Of a stretch of 64,000 nt of DNA, positions 1-31,365 are shown in pieces. Within the stretch, counting starts at the first letter, position 1. Each line of letters opens with the position of its first letter. Under the pieces are notes generated by a model. That model saw only the letters and a list, made by a program, of their open reading frames with translations. It ran no database searches and was not told where the DNA came from. The position numbers were made by a program, and so were the translations under genes. The stretch is from Escherichia coli (lineage in GTDB: Bacteria; Pseudomonadota; Gammaproteobacteria; Enterobacterales; Enterobacteriaceae), in NCBI RefSeq assembly GCF_013122565.1, contig NZ_CP053258.1; one strand, 5' to 3'.

Positions 1-499
1 GGGAAATACGTTTGTCTTCCCCATGGCGGGTTATTCCAAAAAAATAAAAACCGTGGCGCAAATAAAAGAAGGCGCTACAGTGGCGATCCCCAACGACCCG
101 ACCAACCTTGGTCGCGCGCTTTTACTGTTGCAAAAAGAGAAGCTAATTACTCTGAAAGAGGGAAAAGGGTTATTACCTACCGCGCTGGATATAACCGATA
201 ATCCTCGTCATTTGCAGATTATGGAACTCGAGGGGGCGCAGCTCCCGCGCGTACTGGATGATCCCAAAGTTGATGTGGCGATTATTAGCACCACTTACAT
301 TCAGCAGACCGGACTTTCTCCGGTGCACGACAGCGTATTTATTGAAGATAAAAATTCGCCGTATGTGAACATCCTGGTGGCACGGGAAGATAATAAGAAT
401 GCAGAAAACGTGAAGGAATTTCTGCAATCTTATCAATCACCCGAAGTCGCAAAAGCGGCAGAAACCATCTTTAACGGTGGCGCGGTGCCTGGCTGGTAA
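1..499 (+). CDS. nlpA: NlpA/MetQ-family lipoprotein, C-terminal part (5' end lies outside the window)
   Basis: Open frame running in from the window edge to a stop at 499; the 158-aa tail resembles the C-terminal domain of NlpA/MetQ substrate-binding lipoproteins; convergent with yicL as in K-12. Confidence 0.7.
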   Translation, partial: GNTFVFPMAGYSKKIKTVAQIKEGATVAIPNDPTNLGRALLLLQKEKLITLKEGKGLLPTALDITDNPRHLQIMELEGAQLPRVLDDPKVDVAIISTTYIQQTGLSPVHDSVFIEDKNSPYVNILVAREDNKNAENVKEFLQSYQSPEVAKAAETIFNGGAVPGW

Positions 500-502
500 T
501 TC

Positions 503-1426
503 TCACTCATGCCGCGCTGGACGATTTATTTTTCTGGCGCGGCGACGGGAATCCATTGAAATCAAAATTACCGATGACAGAATCAGCAGCGTTCCCAGCC
601 AGTCCGGCAATGTGAACGTGATCCCCAGCAACAGCAAAGAGAGCAGCGCGCTACTTAATGGTTCCGCACAGCTTAAAATGCTGGCTTTTGGACCGCCAAT
701 TAATTGTGCTCCTTTCAGGTACAGGCTAAATGTCAGAGATGTACCAATGACCACCAAATAAAAAAACGCCAGAATCAAACTGCCGTTAACGACAAAGTTT
801 GTTCCTTGTCTGGCATAAAAAGGCAACAGAATCAGACCGCCAATCAGCATACTCCAGCCGACGACTGGTAACGTGCCATAGCGGGCAATCAGCGTTGAGG
901 GATAGGTGGTATAGAATGCAGCAGCAAATGCCGAGGCAATGCCCCAGAATAACGCGGCAGGAGAGATCGATAATGATGTCGGATTACCGTGTGTCACCAA
1001 TAAAAAAGTCCCGACCAGCGATGTCAAAATAGCGCAAAAAACCAGAATGCCCGGGCGCGATTTACGTACCAGTGAGAACCAGGCGACGATAATCGTCGGT
1101 GAGAGGAATTGCAGCACCGTTGCCGTGGCTGCGTTCGATTTTTCGATGGTTAGCAAAAAAGTGAGCTGTACGGTTAGCGCGCCAACCACGGAAAAAATCA
1201 GCAGACTAAAGGCATCTTTGTGATTGTTAATAATAGAAAAGATTTTATCGCCATGAACAAATGACAGCGTCAGCAGAATCAAACCGGCGAATATCAAACG
1301 CGTCATAGTCAAAAACTGCGACGACATCTGGCTTTGCTCCATGATGTATTGCGCGCAGACCCCTGAACTTCCCCACAACACGGCGGCAATCAGAACGTTC
1401 AGCATCCCCTTTCTGGTGGAACCCAT
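503..1426 (-). CDS. yicL: EamA/DMT-family inner-membrane transporter
   Basis: 307-aa highly hydrophobic ORF, same length as K-12 YicL; position between nlpA and setC. Confidence 0.8.
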
Positions 1427-1536
1427 TTTTCCCTCTGCATACTGTTTTGTCGTTTATGTATGCAGGCATGATAGCAAAAATGGCGAGGATGGCTCTGTTT
1501 GCGCCACGCCGATTTTTCTTAGCCCAGACTGGTGAG

Positions 1537-2721
1537 CTAAATATCTTTAATAAACAGCAGGCAAATCATCGCAATACCCAACATCCCTATCGCCAGCCAG
1601 AACAACGCGTGGTAGCTCCAGATTTCAACCATAATTCCGTCAACAGAGCCGGCGATAATCCAGCCGACGCGTGAAGTATTTGCATATAACGTTGTCGCAG
1701 AGCCTATTTTTTCAGGCATCAGGTCCTGAAAATAAAGCATGCCGATACCACAGAGAATACCAAGGAAGATGGCATTTAGAATTTGCAATTCCAGCTCAAC
1801 TGCCGGAGTCGTCGCCATGAGTACGCTGGCGTAAAAACACATTCCACTCACGATAGCAATGAGCATTAATAGCCGCTTGCCAATACGTTTCATGTAATAG
1901 CCTGCGATTAACATCATCGGAATTTCCAGACCGGCAGCGATACCAATCATTTCTCCAGCCAGTTTATCGGTTAGATGCAGTTCATCAATAATAAATAGCG
2001 GCATATTTATCATGTAGAGATTATTCGCCGCCCACATCATTGAACAGACTACAAAAAGTAGCCGTGTATCCCGCTTTCTATGGATGGAGGGTAAAACTTC
2101 TACGGGTTGGGTAACAACAGGAATATTTCTTTGTATTGATGGCAAAAACAACCAGACTATCAGCCCGCAAATAACAAATGCGATGGCAGCGGTGAGATAC
2201 ATCACTTTAAAACTAAATCCCATTGCCAGCTCATAAGCGAGCGGTGGCCCGATAACCCAGGCAAGCGAGATCTGAGCACGTAAAAATGTACTGAACATGA
2301 CCGTCTCGCGGCCTGTTCTGTCAGCGTGTTCACGGGCGAGGGCGAACATTTGCGGGTTTGCGGTGGAAGCAAAACTACTCAGAAGTACGCCCGTTGAGAG
2401 GAGAATGAAGTAGTTGCGATTCCACGCAAAAAGCGTGCAGGCCAGCACTCCAAATAAGCAACATAGCAGAATCAGTAATTTACGGTCGCCTTGTTTATCG
2501 GAGTGCCTTGCCAAAAATTGACTGACCAGAATTCCCATAATAGCGCTACCGGTGAAGAAAAAACCTACCATTATAGGACGAGCTTTCAGTTCATCTGCGA
2601 GGAATATACTTAAGGTAGGAGTCTGGAGAGCGCCCGCAATACCCGTCAGAAAGGCGACAAGTAAAAATGCCGCGGCAGTGAGATCAAGTATTTTTGATGG
2701 AGTGGTAGCCGTTTTTTGCAT
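1537..2721 (-). CDS. setC: MFS sugar efflux transporter SetC
   Basis: 394-aa multi-TM ORF, same length as K-12 SetC; adjacent to selC. Confidence 0.8.
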   Translation of the reverse strand: MQKTATTPSKILDLTAAAFLLVAFLTGIAGALQTPTLSIFLADELKARPIMVGFFFTGSAIMGILVSQFLARHSDKQGDRKLLILLCCLFGVLACTLFAWNRNYFILLSTGVLLSSFASTANPQMFALAREHADRTGRETVMFSTFLRAQISLAWVIGPPLAYELAMGFSFKVMYLTAAIAFVICGLIVWLFLPSIQRNIPVVTQPVEVLPSIHRKRDTRLLFVVCSMMWAANNLYMINMPLFIIDELHLTDKLAGEMIGIAAGLEIPMMLIAGYYMKRIGKRLLMLIAIVSGMCFYASVLMATTPAVELELQILNAIFLGILCGIGMLYFQDLMPEKIGSATTLYANTSRVGWIIAGSVDGIMVEIWSYHALFWLAIGMLGIAMICLLFIKDI

Positions 2722-3106
2722 TCTTCTGAATCACCGGGCGACAAAATATAACTGAGTTACAAATAAGTACCAGTCGAATGAGTATTGTATTAAGAATTTT
2801 TGAGTATCGCTGATACAACCAGAAAGCAATGCTAGCGCAATATTATAGGGCCAGCAATTGAGATTATTAGCAAAAGCATGTTAAGAATTAATTACCGAAT
2901 TTATATATTAATTATAGTAAGGCAATGAGCTATTTTTGATAGTAAAAATAAAACAAGTTGATTTGATATATTAAATGAACAAATTAATCTTGATGGCAGT
3001 CTGATTATTGGTGAGGTTTATAGGTCAGTTTTTTTCGCCAGCTGTTAAAGGAATAGAATAGTCGTATAAAAAAGGGTGTTCTGGAGCGTGTAAAACAACA
3101 TCTTCA

Positions 3107-3330
3107 CCTTAATGGCGATACAGTTGGCTGAGAGTCATCAGGGGGGCAAATCACCTGCAAATAAACACGGCGCAGACTGGCGCGAGTATCGCGGATGCGT
3201 TCGAGGACAGAAGAACCGACAGGCGGATTCTTCAGCCGCTCATCGTCCATCACAAAACCTTTGATCAGGTATTCCTGAAGCCGATTGAATATTGAGCAGT
3301 AGAAAATATCTGGATTGACAGTATTACAAG
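3107..3330 (-). pseudogene. Stop-free remnant of a RhuM-family (virulence-protein-like) gene directly 3' of selC
   Basis: Minus-strand frame translates without stops to ...[49 protein letters not shown]...*; the LxEYLIKGF-DDERLKN and ERIRD-R-S motifs resemble the central region of RhuM-family proteins (recalled, not searched); no start codon, under 60 aa from the first Met. Confidence 0.35.
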
Positions 3331-3358
3331 GGATTGGAGAACGTCAGGAGAGGCATTT

Positions 3359-3453
3359 TGGCGGAAGATCACAGGAGTCGAACCTGCCCGGGACCGCTGG
3401 CGGCCCCAACTGGATTTGAAGTCCAGCCGCCTCACCGGAGACGACGATCTTCC
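3359..3453 (-). tRNA. selC: tRNA-Sec (selenocysteine, anticodon UCA)
   Basis: Reverse complement is GGAAGATCGTCGTCTCCGGTGAGGCGGCTGGACTTCAAATCCAGTTGGGGCCGCCAGCGGTCCCGGGCAGGTTCGACTCCTGTGATCTTCCGCCA, 95 nt, with the long variable arm and encoded CCA typical of E. coli selC. Confidence 0.95.
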
Positions 3454-3745
3454 GCGCCTCGATTGCTACATGGAGGCGGGGCGCATTATAGCTACTTCCT
3501 TGAGTTTCTACATCCCCCAGATCAGTTTTTTCCGCCTAATACACGCAGCGTATTATCACGAAAGCATTATAGTTCATATAAAATTCATATTTTTCAATGA
3601 TATATAAGCGGAATTAACGCTACCACGATCACATAAAACAAGAATCATAAATTAATAACCAGATATCGGAATATTCGCTCTCACAGGGATGGTTTACAAA
3701 ATGCGTTATCGGTCTCAGCACCCCTATAGCATCAAGGAAAAGCAG

Positions 3746-5128
3746 ATGAAGAGTGAAGTGTTGTCCGTTAAAGAGAAAATTGGTTATGGCATGGGAGACG
3801 CCGCCAGCCACATTATTTTCGATAACGTAATGTTATATATGATGTTCTTTTATACCGATATTTTTGGCATTCCTGCCGGATTTGTCGGAACTATGTTTTT
3901 GGTCGCTCGTGCACTGGATGCGATTTCCGATCCTTGCATGGGGTTGTTGGCCGATCGAACGCGCTCTCGCTGGGGTAAATTTCGTCCGTGGGTACTGTTT
4001 GGCGCACTGCCATTCGGGATCGTCTGTGTACTGGCCTATAGCACGCCAGATCTCAGTATGAACGGAAAAATGATTTATGCAGCAATTACTTACACCCTAC
4101 TTACCTTACTTTATACCGTCGTCAATATCCCTTACTGCGCATTGGGTGGTGTAATCACCAATGACCCGACTCAGCGTATCTCGCTGCAATCCTGGCGTTT
4201 TGTGCTGGCGACCGCGGGAGGCATGCTTTCTACTGTTCTGATGATGCCACTGGTTAATTTAATTGGTGGTGATAATAAACCACTCGGTTTCCAGGGCGGT
4301 ATCGCGGTCCTTTCCGTGGTGGCATTTATGATGCTGGCATTTTGTTTCTTCACCACTAAAGAACGCGTTGAAGCACCACCTACAACGACGTCTATGCGGG
4401 AAGATTTACGTGATATCTGGCAAAACGACCAGTGGCGGATTGTCGGTTTACTAACCATTTTCAATATCCTGGCGGTGTGCGTACGCGGTGGAGCGATGAT
4501 GTATTACGTCACATGGATTTTGGGTACGCCGGAAGTGTTTGTCGCTTTTCTCACCACTTATTGCGTGGGTAACCTGATTGGTTCCGCACTGGCAAAACCG
4601 CTGACCGACTGGAAATGTAAAGTCACTATCTTCTGGTGGACGAACGCCCTGCTCGCAGTGATTAGCATCGCGATGTTCTTTGTTCCCATGCAGGCCAGCA
4701 TCACTATGTTTGTCTTCATCTTCGTGATTGGTGTGTTGCATCAACTGGTGACACCTATCCAGTGGGTAATGATGTCCGATACCGTCGACTACGGCGAGTG
4801 GTGCAATGGTAAACGCCTGACCGGGATCAGTTTTGCTGGCACGCTGTTTGTGCTCAAACTGGGGTTGGCCTTCGGCGGCGCTCTTATCGGCTGGATGCTG
4901 GCTTATGGCGGATATGATGCGGCAGAAAAAGCGCAGAACAGCGCCACGATTAGCATCATTATCGCGCTATTCACGATTGTTCCGGCGATCTGTTATTTGC
5001 TGAGCGCGATTATCGCTAAACGCTACTACTCACTCACGACGCACAATCTGAAAACCGTTATGGAACAGCTGGCTCAGGGTAAACGCCGTTGCCAGCAACA
5101 ATTCACCTCTCAAGAAGTGCAGAACTAA
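3746..5128 (+). CDS. yicJ: MFS glycoside-pentoside-hexuronide:cation symporter family transporter
   Basis: ORF with multiple TM segments; ATG at 3746 gives 460 aa (K-12 YicJ length); immediately upstream of yicI. Confidence 0.85.
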   Translation: MKSEVLSVKEKIGYGMGDAASHIIFDNVMLYMMFFYTDIFGIPAGFVGTMFLVARALDAISDPCMGLLADRTRSRWGKFRPWVLFGALPFGIVCVLAYSTPDLSMNGKMIYAAITYTLLTLLYTVVNIPYCALGGVITNDPTQRISLQSWRFVLATAGGMLSTVLMMPLVNLIGGDNKPLGFQGGIAVLSVVAFMMLAFCFFTTKERVEAPPTTTSMREDLRDIWQNDQWRIVGLLTIFNILAVCVRGGAMMYYVTWILGTPEVFVAFLTTYCVGNLIGSALAKPLTDWKCKVTIFWWTNALLAVISIAMFFVPMQASITMFVFIFVIGVLHQLVTPIQWVMMSDTVDYGEWCNGKRLTGISFAGTLFVLKLGLAFGGALIGWMLAYGGYDAAEKAQNSATISIIIALFTIVPAICYLLSAIIAKRYYSLTTHNLKTVMEQLAQGKRRCQQQFTSQEVQN

Positions 5129-5137
5129 GGAACGGCA

Positions 5138-7456
5138 ATGAAAATTAGCGATGGAAACTGGTTGATTCAACCTGGCCTCAATTTGATTCACCCGCTTCAG
5201 GTATTCGAGGTTGAACAGCAGGGTAATGAAATGGTGGTCTATGCTGCCCCCCGTGATGTACGTGAACGTACCTGGCAGCTTGACACGCCTTTATTTACGC
5301 TGCGCTTTTTCTCCCCACAGGAAGGTATTGTCGGGGTGCGGATTGAGCATTTTCAGGGGGCGCTGAATAACGGCCCTCATTACCCGCTCAATATTTTGCA
5401 GGACGTGAAGGTCACAATCGAAAACACAGAACGTTATGCTGAGTTTAAAAGTGGCAACTTAAGCGCGCGTGTCAGCAAAGGTGAGTTCTGGTCACTCGAT
5501 TTTCTGCGCAACGGTGAACGTATTACCGGTAGTCAGGTGAAAAATAATGGCTACGTGCAGGACACGAATAATCAACGAAATTATATGTTTGAGCGGCTTG
5601 ATCTTGGCGTTGGCGAAACAGTTTATGGTCTGGGAGAGCGCTTCACTGCCCTGGTGCGCAATGGTCAGACGGTAGAGACCTGGAACCGGGACGGCGGCAC
5701 AAGTACTGAACAGGCGTATAAAAATATCCCGTTCTATATGACTAACCGTGGTTATGGGGTACTGGTCAATCATCCCCAATGCGTCTCTTTTGAAGTGGGA
5801 TCGGAGAAAGTCTCCAAAGTGCAGTTCAGCGTTGAGAGTGAATATCTCGAATACTTTGTTATCGACGGTCCGACGCCGAAAGCGGTACTTGATCGTTATA
5901 CCCGTTTTACTGGTCGTCCGGCGCTGCCGCCCGCATGGTCCTTCGGCCTGTGGCTAACCACTTCATTTACCACCAACTACGACGAAGCGACGGTAAACAG
6001 CTTTATCGATGGTATGGCGGAACGCAATCTGCCGCTGCATGTTTTCCACTTTGACTGTTTCTGGATGAAAGCCTTCCAGTGGTGCGATTTTGAGTGGGAC
6101 CCGCTGACTTTCCCGGACCCGGAAGGGATGATCCGCCGCCTGAAAGCGAAAGGGCTGAAAATCTGCGTCTGGATTAACCCCTATATTGGGCAAAAATCCC
6201 CCGTTTTTAAAGAGTTACAAGAGAAAGGTTATTTACTCAAACGCCCGGACGGCTCGCTGTGGCAGTGGGATAAATGGCAGCCAGGTCTGGCGATTTATGA
6301 CTTTACCAATCCGGATGCCTGCAAATGGTACGCCGACAAACTGAAAGGTCTGGTCGTGATGGGCGTTGATTGCTTTAAGACCGACTTTGGCGAACGTATT
6401 CCAACCGATGTTCAATGGTTTGACGGTTCCGATCCGCAGAAAATGCATAACCATTATGCGTACATCTACAACGAACTGGTGTGGAACGTGCTCAAGGACA
6501 CCGTTGGTGAGGAAGAAGCTGTCTTGTTTGCCCGCTCGGCCTCCGTCGGTGCGCAGAAATTCCCGGTACACTGGGGTGGCGACTGTTACGCTAACTACGA
6601 ATCAATGGCGGAAAGCCTGCGCGGTGGTTTGTCTATTGGCCTTTCAGGTTTTGGCTTCTGGAGCCACGATATCGGCGGCTTTGAAAATACCGCGCCGGCA
6701 CACGTTTACAAACGCTGGTGCGCGTTTGGTTTGCTCTCCAGCCATAGCCGTTTACATGGCAGCAAATCTTATCGTGTGCCGTGGGCCTATGATGATGAGT
6801 CCTGTGATGTGGTGCGCTTCTTCACGCAACTGAAATGCCGCATGATGCCTTATCTGTATCGTGAAGCTGCGCGTGCGAATGCGCGGGGTACGCCGATGAT
6901 GCGGGCCATGATGATGGAGTTCCCGGACGATCCGGCTTGTGATTACCTTGACCGTCAATACATGTTAGGCGACAACGTGATGGTTGCGCCGGTGTTCACT
7001 GAAGCGGGCGATGTGCAGTTCTACTTGCCGGAAGGTCGCTGGACACACCTGTGGCACAACGATGAGCTCGACGGTAGTCGCTGGCATAAACAGCAGCACA
7101 GCTTCCTGAGTCTGCCCATTTATGTGCGTGATAACACCCTACTGGCGCTGGGCAATAACGATCAACGTCCCGATTACGCGTGGCACGAAGGCACGGCATT
7201 CCACCTCTTTAATCTGCAAGACGGGCATGAAGCCGTCTGTGAAGTGCCCGCTGCTGACGGTTCGGTGATCTTTACACTAAAAGCAGCACGTACTGGCAAC
7301 ACGATTACTGTGACTGGTGCGGGCGAGGCGAAGAACTGGACGCTGTGCTTGCGCAATGTTGTGAAGGTAAATGGTCTGCAAGGCGGTTCGCAGGCTGAAA
7401 GTGAGCAGGGGCTGGTGGTGAAGCCTCAAGGGAATGCGCTGACAATTACGTTGTAA
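5138..7456 (+). CDS. yicI: alpha-xylosidase (glycoside hydrolase family 31)
   Basis: 772-aa ORF, same length as K-12 YicI; GH31-like catalytic region (WIDMNE-like / [10 protein letters not shown] motifs). Confidence 0.9.
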
Positions 7457-7470
7457 TCTATTGATGGAAT

Positions 7471-7498
7471 GCCGGGTACGTCTGAGTCGTACCCGGCG
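7471..7498. terminator. Hairpin between convergent yicI and yicH (likely bidirectional terminator)
   Basis: Inverted repeat gccgggtacg-tctgagt-cgtacccggc in the 52-bp convergent intergenic gap. Confidence 0.5.
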
Positions 7499-7508
7499 AG
7501 ATTGATGT

Positions 7509-9218
7509 TTACTGCACCGGCTCCGTCGACGTAACTTCGCCACTGGAAACGACGCCCGCATTCATGGTTTGAGTCACTTGCTGCTTTGCGGCGTTCACGG
7601 CATGCAATTGCCCGCTAACCGTAGGTTTCAACGGGACATTGGCCTGAATATCGCCACTGGCGGTAAGCTGAATATTGCCGTCGCCAGTCAACGGTAATTC
7701 AGGCCATCCCCACTGTTGCAAAATATTCACCGGCACACCGCGTCCATTCAGGCTGATATGGGTCTGACGTTGTGGCGTTTGTGAAATACTGGCGGTGGCT
7801 TCCAGAATGCCTTTTTCAGTAAATGCACTCAGTTCGCTGATATTCACCGTGCTGCTGTTGGCGGTTAGCGCCAGCGATGGGCGACGAATATCAACACGAT
7901 TAAACGTCGCGGCGGCGGCATTCAGATTCGCCGAGCCACTCCAGACGCCCCATTTATGATCGGTAACCAGCGTCAGATTGGCACCGTAACCATCGAGCGC
8001 GGTGAGCTGCCACGGGAAGTCAGGGTCGATATCAATGATCAGATTGCGGCTGGCGCTAAATCTCTTCAGTTGCAGGCTGTTTAACCAGCCGGGTGTCGTT
8101 TCCATCCACAACTGTTGCCAGTTTTTCGGCAAGGTATATTCCAGCCCGGCAATTGCCGCATCATCAAGGATCAACGTTTTCCCGTCACGCAGCCAGTTCC
8201 CTGACGTTCTGACCATGCCCCCTTCCCAGCGGCTGGTGAACTGGCGCAGCGCTACGCCCTGCGGGGAAAATTCCGCGTTTATAATCGGGTCAAATAAATG
8301 CAGCGAACCATAAATGAACTCGCTGGCATTCATCGACAGTTTGCCTTCCTGTGTCTGCCAGTCATCTTTACTAAAGGTCATGTTGCGCAAGCTGAGATCG
8401 AGGTCGGTCACCGCCCAGTCCGGACCTTGCAGACGTGCGTCGATGACTTCCAGGCGACCAATCTGCAACGATGGGACAGAGCGTAATGGCGCAAAGAAGT
8501 CGGTTAGCGATTTTTCGCTTTGTAGACGGATATCCGCCATGCGCAGATTTTCCACTTGCCAGCTGCCGTCGGCGTTACGCTGCGCGTTTCCGGTTAATGT
8601 CCCGCGGGCGATGTCGGCACCCAGGTTAGTCAGCGTAACGCGATCGTTATCAATACTGCATTCAATCAGTACATTGGTGGCAGGAACATCATTGAGCGAA
8701 AGCGATCCGGCACTAAACTGAATCTGCGCCTTCGTACCCAGCACTTTACCGGCTTCTGGTGACCACGGAACCACGCCGCCATTTACCCGCTGCGCGCTCA
8801 GTTTCCATTCGCTATTCGGGCTATTAAACGCCATATCACGCAGTTGCAGACGATCGGCTTTGAACGGTAGCGGCGCGGTCTGGTCGGTGAGATTCAGCGT
8901 TCCGTTTTCCAGCAGGATGGTATCGACATGGCGTGGTTCGGTCAGTTGCCGACTGCTTAGCGCAATGTCGACACTTTTTGCCACCAGGGTCGCGGGCTGG
9001 CCATCACGGCCAAACGTGACGTTCTCCAGCACGATATGAGATGGCGCGGAAAAACGGTGATCCATCGCCCCGAAGGCCAGATGATAGTCGCTATTCTCGG
9101 AAACCCATGCGCTGATATGTTGTGCTCCCCAGCGAGTTTGCAGAAGAAAATAGAGGCCAGCGATCACCACTAACAGAGCGATGAGAATGTAGAGAAGCAG
9201 CTTCCCAATAAATTTCAT
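7509..9218 (-). CDS. yicH: AsmA-family outer-membrane assembly protein
   Basis: ATG at 9218 gives 569 aa (K-12 YicH length); N-terminal signal/TM segment MKFIGKLLLYILIALLVVIAGLYF. Confidence 0.85.
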   Translation of the reverse strand: MKFIGKLLLYILIALLVVIAGLYFLLQTRWGAQHISAWVSENSDYHLAFGAMDHRFSAPSHIVLENVTFGRDGQPATLVAKSVDIALSSRQLTEPRHVDTILLENGTLNLTDQTAPLPFKADRLQLRDMAFNSPNSEWKLSAQRVNGGVVPWSPEAGKVLGTKAQIQFSAGSLSLNDVPATNVLIECSIDNDRVTLTNLGADIARGTLTGNAQRNADGSWQVENLRMADIRLQSEKSLTDFFAPLRSVPSLQIGRLEVIDARLQGPDWAVTDLDLSLRNMTFSKDDWQTQEGKLSMNASEFIYGSLHLFDPIINAEFSPQGVALRQFTSRWEGGMVRTSGNWLRDGKTLILDDAAIAGLEYTLPKNWQQLWMETTPGWLNSLQLKRFSASRNLIIDIDPDFPWQLTALDGYGANLTLVTDHKWGVWSGSANLNAAAATFNRVDIRRPSLALTANSSTVNISELSAFTEKGILEATASISQTPQRQTHISLNGRGVPVNILQQWGWPELPLTGDGNIQLTASGDIQANVPLKPTVSGQLHAVNAAKQQVTQTMNAGVVSSGEVTSTEPVQ

Positions 9219-9338
9219 GGTCTTCCATCCCGTGAAATGCACATAAGGGAGTTATGCACGATTTACGCGCAATCCTCAAGGCGGGAATGGTGAAAGAGGT
9301 GAGACTGCGGCGGTAATTATCTTACCGCCGCCAGTGAA

Positions 9339-10730
9339 TTACTGTTTTTCTGGTGGGAAAATCAGATTCAGCACGATGGCAGTAATACCGCCCGCGGCGA
9401 TCCCGGAGGAGAGCAGGTTTTTCAGCCATTCAGGGGCAAACTGCAAAATCAGCGGCTGCTGAGACACGCCCAGACCAACCGCCAGCGACAGCGCGATAAT
9501 CAGAATCGCCCGACGGTTCAGCGGCTCACGAGACACAATGCGCACACCGGAGGCGGCGATGGTGCCAAACATTACAAGCGTTGCGCCGCCCAGAACCGGT
9601 TCTGGAATGTGTTGTACAAAACCGCTCACTGCCGGGAACAGACCCAGCACGATCAACATCAGCGCGACGACAAAACCGACATAGCGGCTGGCAACACCGG
9701 TCAACTGGATCACTCCGTTGTTCTGCCCGAAGCAGGAGTTCGGGAAGGTGTTAAACACCGCCGAAACAAACGAGTTCAGGCCGTTTGCCAGCACGCCGCC
9801 TTTCAGGCGTTTCATGTACAGCGGACCGGACACTGGCTGTTCGGAAACGTCAGAGGTCGCCGTGATATCGCCAATGGTTTCCAGCGAAGTGATCATAAAG
9901 ACCAGCATCAGCGGCAGCAGCAGACTCCATTCAATGCCAAGACCGTAATAGAGCGGCGTTGGCACCATAATCAGTTCTTGCGTCATCGGTTCGTTGCTTT
10001 CTGGCAACATGCCCATAAACCACGCCAGCGCATATCCGGCCGCCATCGCAATCACCAGTGAGGCCACGCGTAAGTAAGGGTTACGTTGACGGTTAAGCAG
10101 GATAATTAAGGCTAAGACCACGCCTGCCAGCAGCAGATTTTTCGGTGCGCCGAAGGTGTTATCGCTCATGGCTGCGTAACCGCCGCCAATGGAGGTCAGC
10201 CCCACCTGAATTAGCGACAGGCCGATAATCATCACCACAACGCCAGAAACCAGCGGCGTAATAATGCGGCGCGCCAGATGCAGAACGCGGGAGATCACCA
10301 TCTCGGTGCAACTTGCCAGCATCAACGTGCCGAACAAAGCCGCCATCATGGTAGGAACATCAGCACCACCCGTTTTTAATGCCGTACCGCCCATAATCAG
10401 CGGGGCAACAAAGTTGAAGCTGGTGCCCTGAATAGACAACAGCCCGGAGCCAACCGGACCCCAGGCCTTAATTTGAATAATCGATGCCACACCGGAGGCA
10501 AACAGCGACATACTAATAATGTGTTGCGTGTCTTGTGCCGGTAAACCCAGCGCCTGGCAGATTAATAGCGCTGGCGTGATCACCGCAACGAACATCGCCA
10601 GCAGATGCTGACAGGCGGCAAACAGGGTTTGAGGAAGCGGCGGACGATCTTCAAGACGGTAAATCAGTTCGCTGTTTTGAGTCTGCGCAACCGGTTGCGC
10701 ATTTTCTGACTCGAGGGTGGAAACAGACAT
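9339..10730 (-). CDS. xanP: xanthine permease (NCS2 family)
   Basis: Multi-TM ORF; ATG at 10730 gives 463 aa (K-12 XanP/YicE length); NCS2-like motifs. Confidence 0.85.
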
Positions 10731-11009
10731 CGAAAACAATCCCGTGGTAGCAAAGCGGGCATTTTAGCTGACCGAAAGAGAAAAGCAAACGTTTGCCACG
10801 TCCTCCTCTAAATATTTAAATGAGATAAATGCACTTTTTTATATAACTTTTGGTATTTTTCTGCTTAAAATCCATGCCATTTGTTCATTAACAGCTGAGA
10901 ATTTGACCCAGGAAAGCATGACTCGATACCCGTCATATTTCATGAAGTTGCCACTGCGCGATGAAGTATGACGAGTATGAAAGAGTGATGCGGATACAAA
11001 GGAGTAACT

Positions 11010-12215
11010 ATGTTTCATCTCGATACTTTAGCAACGCTTGTTGCCGCAACGCTGACGTTGCTGCTCGGGCGTAAGTTGGTCCATTCCGTCTCCTTTTTGA
11101 AGAAATACACCATACCGGAACCTGTTGCGGGTGGTTTGTTGGTGGCGCTGGCGCTACTGGTACTGAAAAAAAGCATGGGCTGGGAAGTCAACTTTGATAT
11201 GTCCCTGCGCGATCCGTTAATGCTGGCATTCTTCGCCACCATTGGCCTGAACGCCAACATTGCCAGTTTGCGTGCCGGTGGGCGTGTGGTTGGCATCTTC
11301 CTGATTGTGGTTGTTGGTCTGTTGGTGATGCAAAATGCCATTGGCATTGGTATGGCTAGCCTGTTAGGGCTTGATCCGCTGATGGGGCTGTTGGCCGGTT
11401 CTATTACGCTTTCCGGCGGTCACGGTACGGGAGCTGCATGGAGTAAATTGTTCATTGAACGTTATGGCTTCACCAATGCGACGGAAGTGGCGATGGCCTG
11501 TGCGACGTTTGGTCTGGTGCTGGGCGGCTTGATTGGCGGTCCGGTAGCGCGCTATCTGGTGAAACACTCCACCACGCCGAACGGTATTCCGGATGACCAG
11601 GAAGTCCCGACGGCGTTTGAAAAGCCGGATGTGGGCCGCATGATCACCTCGCTGGTGCTGATTGAAACTATCGCGCTGATTGCTATCTGCCTGACGGTGG
11701 GGAAAATTGTTGCGCAACTTTTGGCTGGCACTGCTTTTGAACTACCGACCTTCGTCTGTGTACTGTTTGTTGGCGTGATTCTGAGCAACGGTCTGTCAAT
11801 AATGGGCTTTTACCGCGTCTTTGAGCGTGCGGTATCCGTGCTGGGTAACGTAAGCTTGTCGTTGTTCCTGGCGATGGCGTTGATGGGGCTGAAACTGTGG
11901 GAGCTGGCTTCGCTGGCGCTGCCGATGCTGGCGATTCTGGTGGTACAGACCATCTTCATGGCGTTGTATGCCATCTTCGTTACCTGGCGCATGATGGGCA
12001 AAAACTACGATGCGGCAGTGCTGGCTGCGGGTCACTGTGGTTTTGGCCTCGGTGCAACGCCAACGGCAATCGCCAACATGCAGGCGATCACTGAACGCTT
12101 TGGCCCGTCGCACATGGCGTTTTTGGTGGTGCCGATGGTCGGTGCGTTCTTTATCGATATCGTCAATGCGCTGGTAATTAAGTTGTATTTGATGTTGCCG
12201 ATTTTTGCCGGTTAA
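11010..12215 (+). CDS. gltS: sodium/glutamate symporter
   Basis: 401-aa multi-TM ORF, same length as K-12 GltS; divergent from xanP. Confidence 0.9.
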   Translation: MFHLDTLATLVAATLTLLLGRKLVHSVSFLKKYTIPEPVAGGLLVALALLVLKKSMGWEVNFDMSLRDPLMLAFFATIGLNANIASLRAGGRVVGIFLIVVVGLLVMQNAIGIGMASLLGLDPLMGLLAGSITLSGGHGTGAAWSKLFIERYGFTNATEVAMACATFGLVLGGLIGGPVARYLVKHSTTPNGIPDDQEVPTAFEKPDVGRMITSLVLIETIALIAICLTVGKIVAQLLAGTAFELPTFVCVLFVGVILSNGLSIMGFYRVFERAVSVLGNVSLSLFLAMALMGLKLWELASLALPMLAILVVQTIFMALYAIFVTWRMMGKNYDAAVLAAGHCGFGLGATPTAIANMQAITERFGPSHMAFLVVPMVGAFFIDIVNALVIKLYLMLPIFAG

Positions 12216-12223
12216 CCGATGAA

Positions 12224-12250
12224 GCGGCGGTCTTCTCACCGCCGCCTTTT
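12224..12250 (+). terminator. Rho-independent terminator hairpin after gltS (in the convergent gap with recG)
   Basis: gcggcggt-cttctc-accgccgc stem-loop followed by TTTT. Confidence 0.6.
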
Positions 12251-20956: not shown

Positions 20957-21781
20957 CTATTTCTTCTCTGTAATTTTTACACTGTTTTCCAACTGCTTGA
21001 TGCTGACCTGCGGGGTCGGCAACTCCTCAGGCATGGTTCCGCCAAGTTCCTGAATGGTTTGCCTCACCTTGCTACCCACGTCAAAGTGTGTGGTATTAGC
21101 TTGCTGTTTTGAATTCACGCCATCCCGCTTGAGTTTTTCTTCTGTTTGGGTAGCTCGAAAGAGATTAGCCGCCAGTTCTGTTGAACCCATATGATCCAGG
21201 ATCTTCTGACTCTTTTTCAGCCCCTTCCGTTGATGAATAGCTTTCTGATCTAATCCACCATACAGCCCCCGGTAACCATGATTCTGAAATATGGCGAAAT
21301 CGATAGCTGTCGCTACCCCAGCTTGCTGCGCTGCCTCAACCAATTGTTTGTTATGTTCTTTCAATTCATTTCTCAGAAAAAGACGCTTTTCGTCTTCACG
21401 AAGTTGCCTGAAAGCTTCATCGTCAGCCAGCTCCTGCCGTCGGGTCTGGATAGCAAAATAAGTTTGCCCTGCCGCAATAACCGGTTTCGCAGGGTCGCCG
21501 TTTTGTACTACCAGGTAACAGGCATAGCGGGAGAGATGAACATCTTCAAGTTCTCGTTGAGCCCCTGAACCTAATACAACCATTTTGGTGGTTTCAACGA
21601 AATGGTCAGATGCAGCTTGATTGCTAGCTTTGCACGCTTGAGTCGCGCGGGTCAGTACCTTTTGAAAATTGCGCCAGTCCCGATAATTCAGTAACGGTGC
21701 CAATTCTCTCGCTGACCAAAATTCTTGCCCTTCAGTGCCATAATGCCGTATCTCTTCAAAAGGTTGATGATGTTCGTTCAT
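20957..21781 (-). CDS. dinD: DNA-damage-inducible protein D
   Basis: ATG at 21781 gives 274 aa; LexA box in its upstream region. Confidence 0.8.
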   Translation of the reverse strand: MNEHHQPFEEIRHYGTEGQEFWSARELAPLLNYRDWRNFQKVLTRATQACKASNQAASDHFVETTKMVVLGSGAQRELEDVHLSRYACYLVVQNGDPAKPVIAAGQTYFAIQTRRQELADDEAFRQLREDEKRLFLRNELKEHNKQLVEAAQQAGVATAIDFAIFQNHGYRGLYGGLDQKAIHQRKGLKKSQKILDHMGSTELAANLFRATQTEEKLKRDGVNSKQQANTTHFDVGSKVRQTIQELGGTMPEELPTPQVSIKQLENSVKITEKK

Positions 21782-21824
21782 TGCCCACTCCATGTGATAT
21801 CGATTGCAAAGAAAGTAAATCTGT

Positions 21825-21844
21825 AACTGTATTTATATACAGTT
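21825..21844. promoter_or_regulatory. LexA operator (SOS box) upstream of dinD
   Basis: aaCTGTatttatatACAGtt fits CTGT-N8-ACAG; an extra CTGT half-site lies just 5' (21821-21824). Confidence 0.7.
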
Positions 21845-22001
21845 ATGAGTATCTCACGTTCTCAGTGTGCTGGGCAAAAAGACATCGCAAAATCTGGAGC
21901 AGGCACGCAAAACAGAATTGAAGTTGCGGGGAAGAAAAATGCCGCTCTGTTTGAGTGGGCGGCATTTGTGAAGGCTGAAAAGTAAGAATTGGCGTTACGA
22001 G

Positions 22002-22865
22002 TTATTCAATGTTCTGAATCTGCTCGCGCATCTGCTCAATCAACACTTTCAGCTCAATCGCGGAGTTTGTCACTTCGGCATTGATAGACTTCGACGCAAG
22101 AGTGTTCGACTCGCGGTTGAACTCCTGCATCATAAAGTCCAGACGACGACCAACGGCTTCTTTTTTCTTCAGAATGTTGTACGTCTCTTTAACATGCGCT
22201 TCGAGGCGGTCCAGTTCTTCGGCAACGTCAATTCGTTGTGCCAGCAGAACCAACTCCTGCTCCAGACGGTTGTTTTCCAACTGCACCTGAGCATCTTCCA
22301 GCTTCGCGACCAGACGTTCACGCTGCCATTGCAGGATTTCCGGCATATGGGCGCGGACTTTAACTACTTCGGCGGTGACGCCTTCCAGACGCTGCTCAAT
22401 CAACGCTTTCAGCGCCTGACCTTCGGTTTCGCGTGCGACAATAAAGTCGTCCAGCGTACCATCCAGCGCCGCGAGAATTTCAGCGGCAATGGCGTCGAGA
22501 TCTTGCTCCTGGGCCGCCATCACGCCCGGCCAACGGAGAATATCAACTGGGTTGATTTCCCCTTCGTCACTCTGCATTTTTACCCAGTTCGCGGCAGTTA
22601 CCAGCTGTTTAGCCAGTTTTTCGTTGAGGATCAGCTCACCTTGCGCGCTAACATCTGGCTCATAGCGCAGGGTACATTCCACTTTACCGCGCGTCAGGCG
22701 AGAACGAATACGCTCGCGAACGACAGGTTCAAGGCTACGGAACTGCTCCGGCAGACGAAAGTAAGTTTCCAGATAACGCTGGTTTACCGAGCGCATTTCC
22801 CAGGTTGCGCTCCCCCATTCACCCTTGATTTCACGCCGGGCGTAGGCGGTCATACTGCGGATCAT
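22002..22865 (-). CDS. yicC: YicC-family stress-induced protein
   Basis: 287-aa ORF, same length as K-12 YicC. Confidence 0.85.
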   Translation of the reverse strand: MIRSMTAYARREIKGEWGSATWEMRSVNQRYLETYFRLPEQFRSLEPVVRERIRSRLTRGKVECTLRYEPDVSAQGELILNEKLAKQLVTAANWVKMQSDEGEINPVDILRWPGVMAAQEQDLDAIAAEILAALDGTLDDFIVARETEGQALKALIEQRLEGVTAEVVKVRAHMPEILQWQRERLVAKLEDAQVQLENNRLEQELVLLAQRIDVAEELDRLEAHVKETYNILKKKEAVGRRLDFMMQEFNRESNTLASKSINAEVTNSAIELKVLIEQMREQIQNIE

Positions 22866-22991
22866 AGACGTTCCTGTTTATAAAAGGAGAGGTGGAAGGA
22901 TTATAGCCATCGATGCCTTGTCAGGATAGGAATAACCGCCGGAAGTCCGTATAATGCGCAGCCACATTTGTTTCAAGCCGGAGATTTCAAT

Positions 22992-23708
22992 ATGCGTCCA
23001 GCAGGCCGTAGCAATAATCAGGTGCGTCCCGTTACCCTGACTCGTAACTATACAAAACATGCAGAAGGCTCGGTGCTGGTCGAATTTGGCGATACCAAAG
23101 TATTGTGTACCGCCTCTATTGAAGAAGGCGTGCCGCGCTTCCTGAAAGGTCAGGGCCAGGGCTGGATCACCGCAGAATACGGCATGCTGCCACGTTCTAC
23201 CCACACTCGTAACGCGCGTGAAGCGGCGAAAGGTAAGCAGGGTGGACGCACAATGGAAATCCAGCGTCTGATCGCCCGTGCGCTTCGCGCGGCAGTAGAT
23301 TTGAAAGCGCTGGGTGAGTTCACCATTACACTGGACTGCGACGTGCTTCAGGCTGATGGTGGCACGCGTACCGCTTCGATTACGGGTGCCTGCGTGGCGC
23401 TGGCAGATGCGCTACAGAAGTTGGTGGAAAACGGCAAGCTGAAAACCAATCCAATGAAAGGGATGGTAGCCGCGGTTTCTGTCGGGATTGTGAACGGCGA
23501 AGCGGTTTGCGATCTGGAATACGTTGAAGACTCTGCCGCAGAGACCGACATGAACGTAGTGATGACCGAAGACGGGCGCATCATTGAAGTGCAGGGGACG
23601 GCAGAAGGCGAACCGTTCACCCACGAAGAATTACTTACCTTGTTGGCTCTGGCCCGAGGGGGAATCGAATCCATTGTAGCGACGCAGAAGGCGGCGCTGG
23701 CAAACTGA
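22992..23708 (+). CDS. rph: ribonuclease PH (apparently intact, full-length)
   Basis: [14 protein letters not shown]... through ...[16 protein letters not shown]; 238 codons with no frameshift. Confidence 0.9.
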
Positions 23709-23713
23709 TTTTT

Positions 23714-23741
23714 AAGGCGACTGATGAGTCGCCTTTTTTTT
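23714..23741 (+). terminator. pyrE attenuator (intrinsic terminator in the rph-pyrE gap)
   Basis: aaggcgactgatgagtcgcctt hairpin followed by a T run, 6 bp after the rph stop and about 30 bp before the pyrE start. Confidence 0.75.
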
Positions 23742-23773
23742 GTCTGTAGAAAAGTAAGATGAGGAGCGAAGGC

Positions 23774-24415
23774 ATGAAACCATATCAGCGCCAGTTTATT
23801 GAATTTGCGCTTAGCAAGCAGGTGTTAAAGTTTGGCGAGTTTACGCTGAAATCCGGGCGCAAAAGCCCCTATTTCTTCAACGCCGGGCTGTTTAATACCG
23901 GGCGCGACCTGGCACTGTTAGGCCGTTTTTACGCTGAAGCATTGGTGGATTCCGGCATTGAATTCGATCTGCTGTTTGGTCCTGCTTACAAAGGGATCCC
24001 GATTGCCACCACAACCGCCGTGGCGCTGGCGGAGCATCATGACCTGGACCTGCCGTACTGCTTTAACCGCAAAGAGGCAAAAGACCACGGTGAAGGCGGC
24101 AATCTGGTTGGTAGCGCGTTACAAGGGCGCGTAATGCTGGTAGATGATGTGATCACCGCCGGAACGGCGATTCGTGAGTCGATGGAAATTATTCAGGCCA
24201 ATGGCGCGACGCTTGCTGGCGTGTTGATTTCGCTCGATCGTCAGGAACGTGGGCGCGGCGAGATTTCGGCGATTCAGGAAGTTGAGCGTGATTACAACTG
24301 CAAAGTGATTTCTATCATCACCCTGAAAGACCTGATTGCTTATCTGGAAGAGAAGCCGGAAATGGCGGAACATCTGGCGGCGGTTAAGGCCTATCGCGAA
24401 GAGTTTGGCGTTTAA
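23774..24415 (+). CDS. pyrE: orotate phosphoribosyltransferase
   Basis: [13 protein letters not shown]...; 213 aa; PRPP-binding motif [13 protein letters not shown]. Confidence 0.95.
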
Positions 24416-24422
24416 AGAAACT

Positions 24423-24446
24423 CGCCGGATGAAAAGTCATCCGGCG
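24423..24446. terminator. Hairpin between convergent pyrE and slmA
   Basis: cgccggatg-aaaagt-catccggcg inverted repeat. Confidence 0.5.
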
Positions 24447-24451
24447 TCATA

Positions 24452-25048
24452 TTACTGCAACTGCGCGGCAATTAGCGGCCAGCGGGCGTCAAAATCATCC
24501 GTCGGGCGGTATTTAAACTCGCTGCGGACAAAACGTGACAGCATACCTTCACAGAAGGCCAGGATCTGGCTTGCCAGCAGGGTTTCATCGGTGGTGTAAC
24601 CTTCACCCTCACGCATTCTCTTTTCACGCAATACCTGACGCAGCTGCGCTTCAATACGCTCGAACAGCTGGTTGATACGCCCTTGCAGGCGATCCTGTTC
24701 AAACATCAGCGCATGACCAGTGAGGATGCGGGTCAGGCCAGGATTACGCTCACCAAAACCGAGAAGCAGCAACACAATCAGACGCAGGCGCGCTGTGGTG
24801 TCTTTCTCATCTTTCAGAATCAGATTGATGCGAGTAATCAGGCTATCTTCGATAAACTCAATCAGGCTATCGAACATGCGGGTCTTACTGGGGAAGTGGC
24901 GATACAGTGCCGCTTCGGAAACGCCGACAGAGGCGGCCAGTTTTGCCGTCGTGATACGTTGGCTTCCATCGCTGGATTCCAGCATCAGCGCCAGAGACTG
25001 AAGTATTTCCTCGCGACGGTTCCTTTTCGCAGTTTGTTTTTCTGCCAT
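24452..25048 (-). CDS. slmA: nucleoid occlusion factor SlmA (TetR family)
   Basis: ATG at 25048 gives 198 aa starting [16 protein letters not shown]; TetR-like HTH. Confidence 0.9.
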
Positions 25049-25154
25049 GTTACAAAATACCCCTGAAAATAAGCACTTGCCAGGCGGCACCCACGCTATG
25101 ACCGCAAACGAAATGTTTGCGGCTATGTTATGACGTTATTCGGATGCGTATGTG

Positions 25155-25613
25155 TTACTGACGACCAGAGTGACCAAAGCCGCCTTCACCGCGGTCGGTG
25201 GCGTTGAAATCTTCCACCAGATTAAATTCAGCCTGTACTACCGGAACAAAAATCATCTGGGCGATGCGTTCACCAGGTTGAATGGTGAAGCTGTCCTGAC
25301 CACGGTTCCACACGGAAATCATTAACTGGCCCTGATAGTCGGAATCGATCAATCCTACCAGGTTACCAAGCACGATACCGTGCTTATGCCCCAATCCGGA
25401 GCGCGGCAGCATCATTGCCGCCAGTGAAGGATCGGCAATATGAATCGCCAGCCCGGTCGGAACCAGCGTAGTGTCACCCGGAGCCAGTTCTACGGCGTCG
25501 TCGAGACAGGCACGCAGGTCAAGTCCGGCAGAGCCAGAGGTGGCATAAGTCGGGAGCGGAAATTCCTTCCCAACGCGCGGGTCCAGAATCTTAACGTCGA
25601 TTTTTTTCATCAT
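25155..25613 (-). CDS. dut: dUTP diphosphatase
   Basis: 152-aa [18 protein letters not shown]... Confidence 0.95.
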
Positions 25614-26811
25614 AACGGGTCACGATCTCGTCGAGTAATAATTGGCCAAGGAGCTCTTTGCGCTCAAGCGGTAAGACTTTATCTCCGTCCTGCCAGAAAA
25701 GGTGTAATGCGTTGTTGTCGCTGTTAAATCCTTGAGTTGGCTGGGAAACATCGTTCGCGCAGATCAGATCAAGGTTTTTACGGATACGTTTTTGCCGGGC
25801 GTATTCTTCCACATTATTTGTTTCGGCGGCAAATCCAACGACGTAGGGGCGATGGTCTTTTAGTGCGGCAACGCCTGCGACGATATCGGGGTTTTTAACC
25901 ATTTTTATTGTTAATTCATCACCCTGCGTGGCCTGTTTTTTGATTTTTTCTGGGGCCACAGTAGCTGCGCGATAATCCGCCACGGCGGCGCAGCCGATAA
26001 AAATATTTTGCTGCTGTACAGAAGCATTCACGGCGGCTTCCATTTCCAGCGCGGTCATCACATCAACACGTTTAACAAACGGTGGCGTCGGTAGTGAAAC
26101 CGGACCTGATACCAGCGTGACGTTCGCGCCACGACGGGCAGCGGCGGCGGCGATAGCAAAACCCATCTTGCCGGAGCTGTGATTAGAGATATAACGCACC
26201 GGATCGAGCGGTTCACGCGTCGGACCGGCGGTAATCATAATGTTCAGATGTTTCAGGTCGTTGACGGGCGAAAAATGCGCCACCGCCATATCCACAATGG
26301 TTAACGGATCGAGCATTCGCCCAGGACCGATATCACCACAAGCCTGACTGCCACTGTCTGGCCCCCAGATGAGCAAACCACGGGAAGCAAGCACCTCTAA
26401 ATTATGCTGCGTGGCAGCGGCACGGTACATCTGCTGGTTCATGGCGGGGAGCACGGCTACAGGCGCAGGTGTAGCCAGACAAATCGTCGATACCAGGTCA
26501 TTCGCCATTCCGGCAGCAACACGGGCAATCAAATCTGCCGTGGCAGGGGCGAGAATCACTAAATCAGCCCATTTACCCAGCTCAATATGGCCCATAGCGG
26601 CTTCGGCTGCCGGGTCAAGCAGGCTGTCGGAAACGGGATACCCAGAAACCGCCTGCAAGCTAAGTGGGGTGATAAAGGCTTTTGCCGCTTCGGTCATGGC
26701 TACGCGGACGTCGGCCCCGCGATCGCGCAAACGACGCACCAGTTCAGGGGTTTTATAGGCAGCAATACCGCCGCTAACGCCGAGAACGATTTTTTTACCG
26801 GCCAGGCTCAT
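25591..26811 (-). CDS. coaBC: bifunctional phosphopantothenoylcysteine decarboxylase / phosphopantothenate-cysteine ligase
   Basis: ATG at 26811 gives 406 aa starting [20 protein letters not shown] (flavoprotein fold); overlaps the dut start. Confidence 0.9.
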
Positions 26812-26976
26812 GATGATTTTTCCTGTTGGGTGACACCAGAAGTTGGCGATTTTATCACAATACTTTTGTTGTCGTGCCTTCACCTGAGAATCACTTTGCG
26901 AGGCGCTTTCCAGGATTGAAAACTGGCCGTCGAATTAACGGAACGGCTATGACAGGATGCGAGCACCACAAAGGAG

Positions 26977-27651
26977 GTGAAGGTGAAAAACAATGCACAG
27001 CTGTTGATGCCGCGCGAAAAAATGCTGAAGTTTGGTATTAGCGCCTTAACGGATGTCGAGCTGCTGGCGCTATTTCTGCGTACCGGAACGCGCGGTAAAG
27101 ATGTATTAACCCTGGCAAAAGAGATGCTGGAGAATTTCGGCTCTCTTTATGGCTTGTTAACCTCTGAATATGAACAATTTAGTGGTGTTCATGGAATTGG
27201 CGTAGCGAAATTTGCCCAGTTAAAGGGGATTGCTGAATTGGCGCGGCGTTACTACAACGTGCGGATGCGTGAAGAAAGCCCTTTACTCAGCCCGGAGATG
27301 ACGCGGGAATTTTTACAAAGCCAGCTCACGGGTGAGGAGCGGGAGATCTTTATGGTGATCTTTCTCGACTCACAACACCGGGTTATAACGCATAGCCGTC
27401 TTTTTTCCGGCACGCTAAACCATGTTGAAGTCCATCCTCGGGAAATTATCCGCGAAGCGATAAAAATAAACGCCTCGGCGCTGATCCTTGCACATAATCA
27501 CCCTTCGGGTTGTGCTGAACCCAGTAAAGCGGATAAACTCATTACTGAACGGATAATAAAGAGTTGTCAGTTCATGGATTTACGCGTGCTCGACCATATC
27601 GTGATTGGGCGTGGAGAGTATGTTTCTTTTGCCGAACGCGGCTGGATTTAA
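26977..27651 (+). CDS. radC: RadC/YicR-family JAB-domain protein
   Basis: 224-aa ORF with JAMM-like motif HNHPSG. Confidence 0.85.
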
Positions 27652-27846
27652 CCCGCTATGCGCGATCCTTCGGGATCTTTGTCTGTTCGGGACTTGAGCA
27701 CATCGCTGAGTCAGCGTATACTACGCCACCTTTGAGAATCTCGGGTTTGGCATTTGGGCCTGGCAATCGAGAGTTCACATAGAACTGCGATGACCGGGCT
27801 GTAAAGCCTGACGAGGCGCCAATACCCCATACGAAGCTCGAGCTAA

Positions 27847-28104
<258 letters not shown>

Positions 28105-28121
28105 GTACTTAGAGGAAATAA

Positions 28122-28292
<171 letters not shown>

Positions 28293-28389
28293 TTCTCGCT
28301 TTGATGTAACGAAAAACCTCGCTCCGGCGGGGTTTTTTGTTATCTGCTTGCCCCCATATTGACTGCATCTGTTCATTCCTGGAGATGCT

Positions 28390-29199
28390 ATGCCTGAATT
28401 ACCCGAAGTTGAAACCAGCCGTCGCGGCATAGAACCGCATCTCGTTGGTGCAACCATTCTTCATGCGGTGGTGCGCAACGGACGCTTGCGCTGGCCGGTT
28501 TCAGAAGAGATCTACCGTTTAAGCGACCAACCAGTGCTTAGCGTGCAGCGGCGGGCTAAATATCTGCTGCTGGAGCTGCCTGAGGGCTGGATTATCATTC
28601 ATTTAGGGATGTCTGGCAGCCTGCGCATCCTTCCAGAAGAACTTCCCCCTGAAAAGCATGACCATGTGGATTTGGTGATGAGCAACGGTAAAGTGCTGCG
28701 CTACACCGATCCGCGCCGCTTTGGTGCCTGGCTGTGGACCAAAGAGCTGGAAGGGCATAATGTGCTGGCCCATCTTGGACCGGAGCCGCTTAGCGACGAT
28801 TTCAACGGTGAGTATCTGCATCAGAAGTGCGAGAAGAAAAAAACGGCGATTAAACCGTGGCTGATGGATAACAAGCTGGTGGTAGGGGTAGGGAATATCT
28901 ATGCCAGCGAATCACTGTTTGCGGCGGGGATCCATCCGGATCGGCTGGCGTCATCACTGTCGCTGGCAGAGTGTGAATTGTTAGCTCGGGTGATTAAAGC
29001 GGTGTTGCTGCGTTCGATTGAGCAGGGTGGTACAACTCTGAAAGATTTTCTGCAAAGTGATGGTAAACCGGGCTATTTCGCGCAGGAATTGCAGGTTTAC
29101 GGGCGAAAAGGCGAGCCGTGTCGGGTGTGCGGTACGCCGATTGTGGCGACTAAACATGCGCAGCGGGCAACGTTTTATTGTCGGCAGTGTCAGAAGTAA
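28390..29199 (+). CDS. mutM: formamidopyrimidine-DNA glycosylase
   Basis: 269-aa ORF starting MPELPEVE; C-terminal zinc finger CRVCGTPI...CRQC. Confidence 0.95.
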
Positions 29200-29237
29200 T
29201 TCATGCGCGCCGGATGGCATACCATCCGGCATAAACG

Positions 29238-31002
<1,765 letters not shown>

Positions 31003-31326: not shown

Positions 31327-31365
31327 CAGTATTCAGGTAGCTGTTGAGCCTGGGGCGGTAGCGTG
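31327..31365 (+). promoter_or_regulatory. JUMPStart element containing the ops site (RfaH recruitment) in the waaQ leader
   Basis: cagtattcaggtagctgttgagcctggGGCGGTAGCGTG; the 12-nt ops consensus GGCGGTAGCGTG is at 31354-31365. Confidence 0.7.

Follow-up and report, generated by a model that had tools for sequence, protein, structure and literature searches.

A RhuM-family gene remnant between selC and setC in Escherichia coli: the pseudogene yicT revisited

The DNA analysed here (the window) is a stretch of 64,000 nucleotides of an E. coli/Shigella-type chromosome, colinear with that of K-12 and in reverse orientation. The locus is anchored by the tRNA gene selC, an integration hotspot for genomic islands, and the following genes and intervals were located around it.

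23-499, plus strand: nlpA
503-1426, minus strand: yicL
1537-2721, minus strand: setC
2722-3358: selC-setC spacer, 637 nt
3359-3453, minus strand: selC, tRNA-Sec (UCA), by ARAGORN and by Rfam RF01852 (83.8 bits)
Beyond selC, plus strand: yicJ and yicI

Between selC and yicL only a rhuM relic and setC were found, in an order colinear with K-12, and there is no integrase ORF in this interval. The relic lies on the same strand as selC, immediately 3' of it and inside the selC-setC spacer. The remainder of the spacer (2722-3076) is very AT-rich, with a GC content of 0.29-0.36 versus about 0.5 in the flanks, and is devoid of any detectable gene, repeat or Rfam match, apart from a single sigma-70-like hexamer pair on the plus strand (2881-2909), a count no higher than expected by chance; this part is presumably the setC upstream region.

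Several other features of the window were recorded. Positions 1-12000 showed a best identity of 98.7% among the complete E. coli genomes in RefSeq, and the closest spacer allele, that of FDAARGOS_943, carries IS1 and IS5 insertions that are both absent from the window. About 116 bp of the K-12 gltS-recG interval are missing at 12210-12231, and the stretch from near yicC to rfaP (21749-34294) is only 92.7% identical to K-12. A JUMPstart RNA element (31327-31365; Rfam RF01707, 55.2 bits) separates waaA from the rfaQ operon, its expected position being upstream of that operon. At 34294-35410, in the waa (LPS core) cluster, other sequence stands in place of the K-12 rfaS region, with a 326-aa ORF (34417-35397) that resembles an LPS 3-alpha-galactosyltransferase, below the NCBIfam cut-off. 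The K-12 gene yibB (about 1.28 kb, rfaD-kbl) is absent at 45607-45669 and about 62 nt stand in its place. At the end of the window, a trimeric-autotransporter-adhesin ORF (YadA/EmaA/Ata-type) of at least 868 codons occupies 61302-64000 on the minus strand and runs off the window end; this stretch beyond lldP is unmatched in the K-12 region used for comparison, where yibL comes next.

A stop-free minus-strand frame between selC and setC had been noticed in an earlier, sequence-only reading of this DNA, and translation reproduced the quoted peptide exactly, with 75 sense codons at 3107-3331 and a TAA at 3104-3106 (translation of 3104-3331), the remaining two minus frames over 3104-3331 being full of stops. 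The chance of a 75-codon open frame is (61/64)^75, or about 0.03 per frame; the frame alone is weak evidence, and the excess over chance lies in homology. The same reading had found no start codon, which proved not strictly correct, as an in-frame GTG (3253) and ATG (3250) are present, the K-12 yicT annotation beginning at that ATG. The ATG opens an ORF of 48 codons (3104-3250) with AAGG 7 nt upstream, intact in both the window and K-12, and the GTG an ORF of 49 aa (3104-3253). Codons 1-17 of the open frame (3282-3331) are non-coding leader that does not derive from RhuM, and the clearly RhuM-derived part comprises codons 18-60 only (3152-3281).

Likeness to the conserved core of RhuM-family proteins, also suggested earlier, was borne out by profile and pairwise searches. 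BLASTP of the frame peptide against E. coli RhuM WP_001280585 (345 aa, from NRG857C) gave 40/51 identities over residues 121-171, with one 8-residue gap (E=2e-23). The Pfam family Virulence_RhuM (PF13310) matched the fragment at E=2.1e-11 over model positions 50-98 of 252, compared with E=6e-118 over positions 1-250 for the intact E. coli protein, and PADLOC PDC-S05 matched the remnant at E=2e-15 over positions 118-166, a partial match only, whereas intact E. coli RhuM matches the models end to end (E=3e-173). At the nucleotide level, 119/130 positions of the core were identical to NRG857C rhuM without gaps (blastn, E=9e-30), and the first 69 nt of the remnant were 100% identical to intact B2 rhuM. 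The translated comparison with the selC-proximal rhuM of SPI-3 that had been proposed was positive, the product from Salmonella Infantis SARB27 sharing 39/51 aa with the window peptide (E=4e-21). By tblastn, the remnant segment was matched in all 80 RhuM loci retrieved from other species. Neither the fragment nor the intact protein was assigned to a family in NCBIfam or PHROGs scans. The profile match extends over a partial model only, and the complete protein (an N-terminal part of about 70 aa plus the full domain of about 250 aa, about 330-345 aa in all) is not present. The earlier description of the segment as far shorter than a full gene was accurate, with residues 121-171 of 345 and a degenerate tail kept. 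Since the N-terminal 120 codons and about 150 C-terminal codons are absent, the fragment is a RhuM-family-derived pseudogene, not a member gene. The relic represents about one seventh of a RhuM-family gene and is inactive as a protein.

Comparison with other selC loci allowed the remnant to be divided into the following parts.

3282-3358, minus strand: att-like, non-coding leader directly 3' of selC, 77 nt, kept from the 5' end of the former selC-rhuM intergenic leader
3278-3281, minus strand: deletion junction with GCTT microhomology, where the leader is joined to RhuM codon 121
3152-3281, minus strand: core RhuM remnant, residues 121-171 of 345 aa (LQEYLIKGFVMDDERLKNPPVGSSV / LERIRDTRASLRRVYLQV)
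3077-3151, minus strand: degenerate tail, roughly RhuM residues 172-197, with small indels, holding the stop at 3104-3106
3119-3250, minus strand: equivalent of the K-12 pseudogene yicT (b4653), 97.0% identity, 4 mismatches in 132 nt

The leader was traced through E. coli E69, in which a sequence 83% identical to window 3278-3358 (L007:1899-1980, E=4e-17) comes after a partial copy of selC and extends another 40 nt, up to the GGCGGCGAC-ATG of a second, truncated rhuM (MSDKDLTQSPAGEF...). As the E69 copy leads into a rhuM start, window 3282-3358 was assigned to the 5' part of the old selC-rhuM leader. The first 51 nt after selC (3308-3358) also adjoin selC in O157:H7, where an island integrase gene comes next, and in TUM1586 they stand after an incomplete copy of selC, at the selC island's distal end; given this recurrence at island junctions (O157:H7, TUM1586 and E69), 3308-3358 is att-like in its behaviour. 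In other genera, the leaders between selC and rhuM gave no convincing alignment to the window leader past the first 30 nt or so.

The junction itself was defined by comparison of three sequences (a stroke marks the boundary): the E69 leader reads ...TCGGCTT/AACCGAG, intact rhuM reads ...CAGACGCTT/CAGGAATAC, and the window reads ...TCGGCTT/CAGGAATAC. From this comparison it follows that about 0.4 kb is gone, namely the remaining leader together with codons 1-120. The boundaries can be read directly from the alignment, and a deletion at the GCTT microhomology would be the mechanism. Among the E. coli genomes, none was recovered with a K-12-type leader followed by a complete rhuM. The core carries a 24-nt in-frame deletion that removed VPDYFDEM (8 codons; junction at about 3205/3206). 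In the tail, the alignment to E. albertii rhuM reaches window position 3077 or so with small indels, and tblastn to locus L012 reaches ...DSQPTV; in local alignments of the tail, 3/2000 (E. albertii), 22/2000 (Salmonella) and 41/2000 (NRG857C) shuffles scored as well. The tail is probably RhuM-derived, although its homology is weak.

The att-like behaviour of the leader bears on the reading that the DNA has been kept for a role in cis, as an att region for selC islands, as the 3' flank or terminator of selC, or in the upstream regulation of setC. The recurrence of the 51 nt at selC (3308-3358) at the island junctions of O157:H7, TUM1586 and E69, and the presence of the spacer in 3,618 genomes, are in keeping with such a role, which would cover the leader (3282-3358) but not the RhuM-derived part. 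Moreover, the core is polymorphic at 12/130 sites among ten alleles, and the whole setC-type spacer is missing from B2 strains. The search for terminators found one weak hairpin only (3104-3118), at chance level with 1 found versus 0.6 expected, and RNA folding of 3060-3358 was no better than that of shuffled sequences (z=0.14), which gives no excess structure in support of a cis element. A cis role was considered very improbable for the remnant as a whole.

Evidence of decay was sought in the invariant columns of the family and in the alleles of E. coli. In an alignment of 32 intact homologues (mean column identity of 79%), the retained segment spans many invariant columns; P147, D148, Y149, F150 and E152 were removed by the 24-nt deletion, and I160T, E164L and R170Q are found in the window at columns invariant in the 32 homologues. 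The invariant residues of the retained segment are, in short, not conserved. Substitutions were analysed in the 130-nt core of ten E. coli spacer alleles, and the statistics pertain to these ten alleles only: 12/130 sites were substituted, 9 of them non-synonymous (one nonsense) and 3 synonymous, with no third-position excess. The nonsense change, from K to a stop codon, occurs in MG1655, AW1.7 and Res13. The core of strain 4069 has lost 1 nt (inside the 48-codon ORF), another 1-nt deletion, in the C-run of the tail, is shared by strains 4069 and M11957, and the TUM1586 leader is short of 15 nt through a deletion. The flags given by PGAP vary by strain between 'internal stop', 'frameshifted' and 'incomplete'. 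The window differs from the nine other alleles at 3186 (I160T), 3175 and 3138. Across the ten E. coli alleles the substitution pattern is that of neutral decay, and truncation, lineage-specific lesions and neutral substitution, the marks of a pseudogene, were all found. The earlier suggestion of a decayed cargo gene is therefore supported by the truncation at both ends, the lost invariant residues and the neutral evolution.

These data also weigh on the proposal that the remnant was domesticated as a small protein, either the 48-aa product of the ATG ORF (3104-3250) or the 49-aa product of the GTG ORF (3104-3253), which might modulate RhuM-type proteins. The ORF keeps the conserved GFVMDDERLKNPP...ERIRD segment, its ATG has an AAGG at 7-nt spacing, and the K-12 nonsense codon lies upstream of the ATG, so that the short ORF is intact in K-12. 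Selection on a protein is nevertheless hard to reconcile with 9 non-synonymous versus 3 synonymous sites in the core without codon-position bias, with 1-nt deletions inside the ORF (4069) and in the C-run (4069 and M11957) that break or change the frame, and with the deletion or replacement of invariant family residues. In addition, no sigma-70-like site was found on the minus strand between 2600 and 3800, and both curated annotations treat the sequence as a pseudogene. Domestication was thus rated highly improbable. The remaining alternative, an open frame arisen by chance in non-coding spacer with a spurious resemblance to RhuM, can appeal to a 75-codon frame that is only mildly improbable and whose first 17 codons are non-coding leader, but its likelihood is negligible, as it is already refuted by the homology searches (E=2e-23 by BLASTP, 2e-11 by Pfam, 9e-30 by blastn and 4e-21 against SPI-3 RhuM, with 80/80 RhuM loci matched).

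The preferred reading, with a probability of roughly 0.93, is that window 3077-3358 (minus strand) is a non-functional relic of a RhuM-family gene that once lay directly downstream of selC in the same orientation. B2 E. coli, E. albertii and Salmonella SPI-3 still have an intact rhuM downstream of selC, as do numerous further Enterobacterales. According to the history that we infer, rhuM would have arrived as cargo at the selC integration hotspot and would have been inactivated by the deletion of about 0.4 kb between GCTT microhomologies; further small deletions probably came after this loss, and the relic and setC may then have been transmitted together by vertical descent in most E. coli outside B2.

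The remnant is already known and is an ordinary, previously annotated pseudogene. NC_000913.3 annotates the pseudogene yicT (b4653) at 3836425-3836556, and at this position PGAP gives 'rhuM: RhuM family protein' as pseudo, 'missing N-terminus and C-terminus', both in derivatives of MG1655 and in all further strains with the spacer that were opened. Searches of the literature on yicT/b4653 and on rhuM with selC returned mostly unrelated papers. The window allele shares with K-12 yicT the selC-setC locus, the strand, the 5' truncation and the 24-nt internal deletion, and differs at a codon upstream of the yicT ATG, AAA (Lys) in the window and TAA in K-12, which makes the open frame of the window allele longer. 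Of 5,426 complete E. coli genomes, 3,618 have the K-12-type spacer with the relic and 843 have an intact rhuM, counted as such from 80% of its length upwards. For the window itself the finding is of little importance, being the re-discovery of an annotated pseudogene, with a small refinement of the annotation as regards the retained leader, the microhomology deletion of about 0.4 kb and the 24-nt in-frame deletion. The relic is of modest use as a historical marker for the selC integration hotspot, being present in most E. coli, with the gene intact in B2/ST131-type strains, E. albertii and Salmonella.

As for function, intact RhuM-family members are candidates for single-gene anti-phage defence (PADLOC PDC-S05). 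According to a preprint, a cold-seep PDC-S05 Virulence_RhuM protein lowered the plating of T7 and T5 about 1000-fold and that of T4 about 10-fold in E. coli B (bioRxiv 10.1101/2024.09.26.614923). PDC-S05 defence needs the whole protein, whereas the window fragment is without more than 80% of it, and phage restriction by such a piece, under 20% of the full protein, would be implausible. RhuM homologues are also found in phages and plasmids, which fits mobile cargo. The structure of the family was approached with the intact protein: a PDB sequence search returned nothing below E=0.6, and the AlphaFold2 model obtained from the 32-sequence alignment was poor (mean pLDDT of 59.5, pTM of 0.37). A bolder idea is that the 48-codon yicT frame encodes a micro-protein that interferes with or senses RhuM/PDC-S05 defence and, more broadly, that the tight adjacency to selC marks rhuM as a 'sentinel', a defence gene conserved at the selC hotspot; this was held to be very doubtful. 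If it were true, the loss of rhuM in most E. coli could shape phage susceptibility.

The nearest known counterparts of the locus are those of B2 strains (NRG857C, ST131), in which an intact RhuM is encoded at the same position and orientation relative to selC. The order in NRG857C is selC, 15 shared nt, an intact rhuM of 1,038 nt, a partial selC copy, a second rhuM relic, a hypothetical gene and yicL. Unlike the window, which keeps about 130-200 nt of rhuM, the B2 loci are without the setC-type spacer and have a hypothetical gene instead of setC. A partial copy of the selC 3' end lies about 130 nt after the intact rhuM in both NRG857C (L002:2822-3390) and E69 (L007:1763-2060), and it is followed by a second, older rhuM relic, which spans residues 165-205 or so in NRG857C and the first 14 codons only in E69. 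The partial selC copy and the second relic point to repeated insertion and decay at selC. A selC-integrated P4-type island has an integrase gene beside selC and, at its distal boundary, a direct repeat of the selC 3' end. Such structures, present in O157:H7, TUM1586, E69 and NRG857C, are not found in the window, and a search of all 64 kb with up to 3 mismatches found no second selC 3' end and no second copy of its 23 downstream nt.

In Salmonella, the SPI-3 rhuM (STM3755 orthologue) is intact and its product has 85% aa identity to the E. coli protein. The order from selC in SPI-3 is sugR, rhuM, rmbA and further genes (PMC9251186), and the sugR/rhuM end of the island is often deleted in Salmonella serovars (PMC5966662). 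In SARB27, rhuM is encoded on the strand of selC, downstream of it and ahead of yicL; its start is some 2.9 kb away from selC, with the sugR region in between. The sequence-only reading had placed rhuM next to selC in SPI-3, which holds as to nearness and fails as to immediate adjacency, with sugR between the two and the distance of 2.9 kb in SARB27. The window is not a part of SPI-3; the Salmonella comparator does carry the SPI-3 genes, and only the selC-to-rhuM linkage is shared. One Salmonella record bears the label 'Fic family toxin', as a record label only.

Other species were surveyed through the best 80 RhuM loci, taking one genome per species (L009-L083 among the loci). A tRNA-Sec gene was found upstream of rhuM, on the same strand and within 8 kb, in 26 of these 80 best loci, E. 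albertii included, and downstream of it in none (0/80); tRNA-Leu(CAA) was upstream in two further loci. A repeat of the selC 3' end after rhuM was looked for in 27 selC-linked loci of other species and was found only in Pseudescherichia vulneris. The gap between selC and rhuM was 150-520 nt, with no integrase between them, in 13 of the 26 loci, and these tight loci come from Enterobacter, Pseudescherichia, Pantoea, Raoultella, Huaxiibacter, Morganella, Proteus, Providencia, Hafnia, an Erwinia MAG and a MAG labelled Bacillota. With tRNA-Sec upstream in 26/80 loci, the selC-to-rhuM linkage is widespread in Enterobacterales, and its decayed E. coli form is found in the window.
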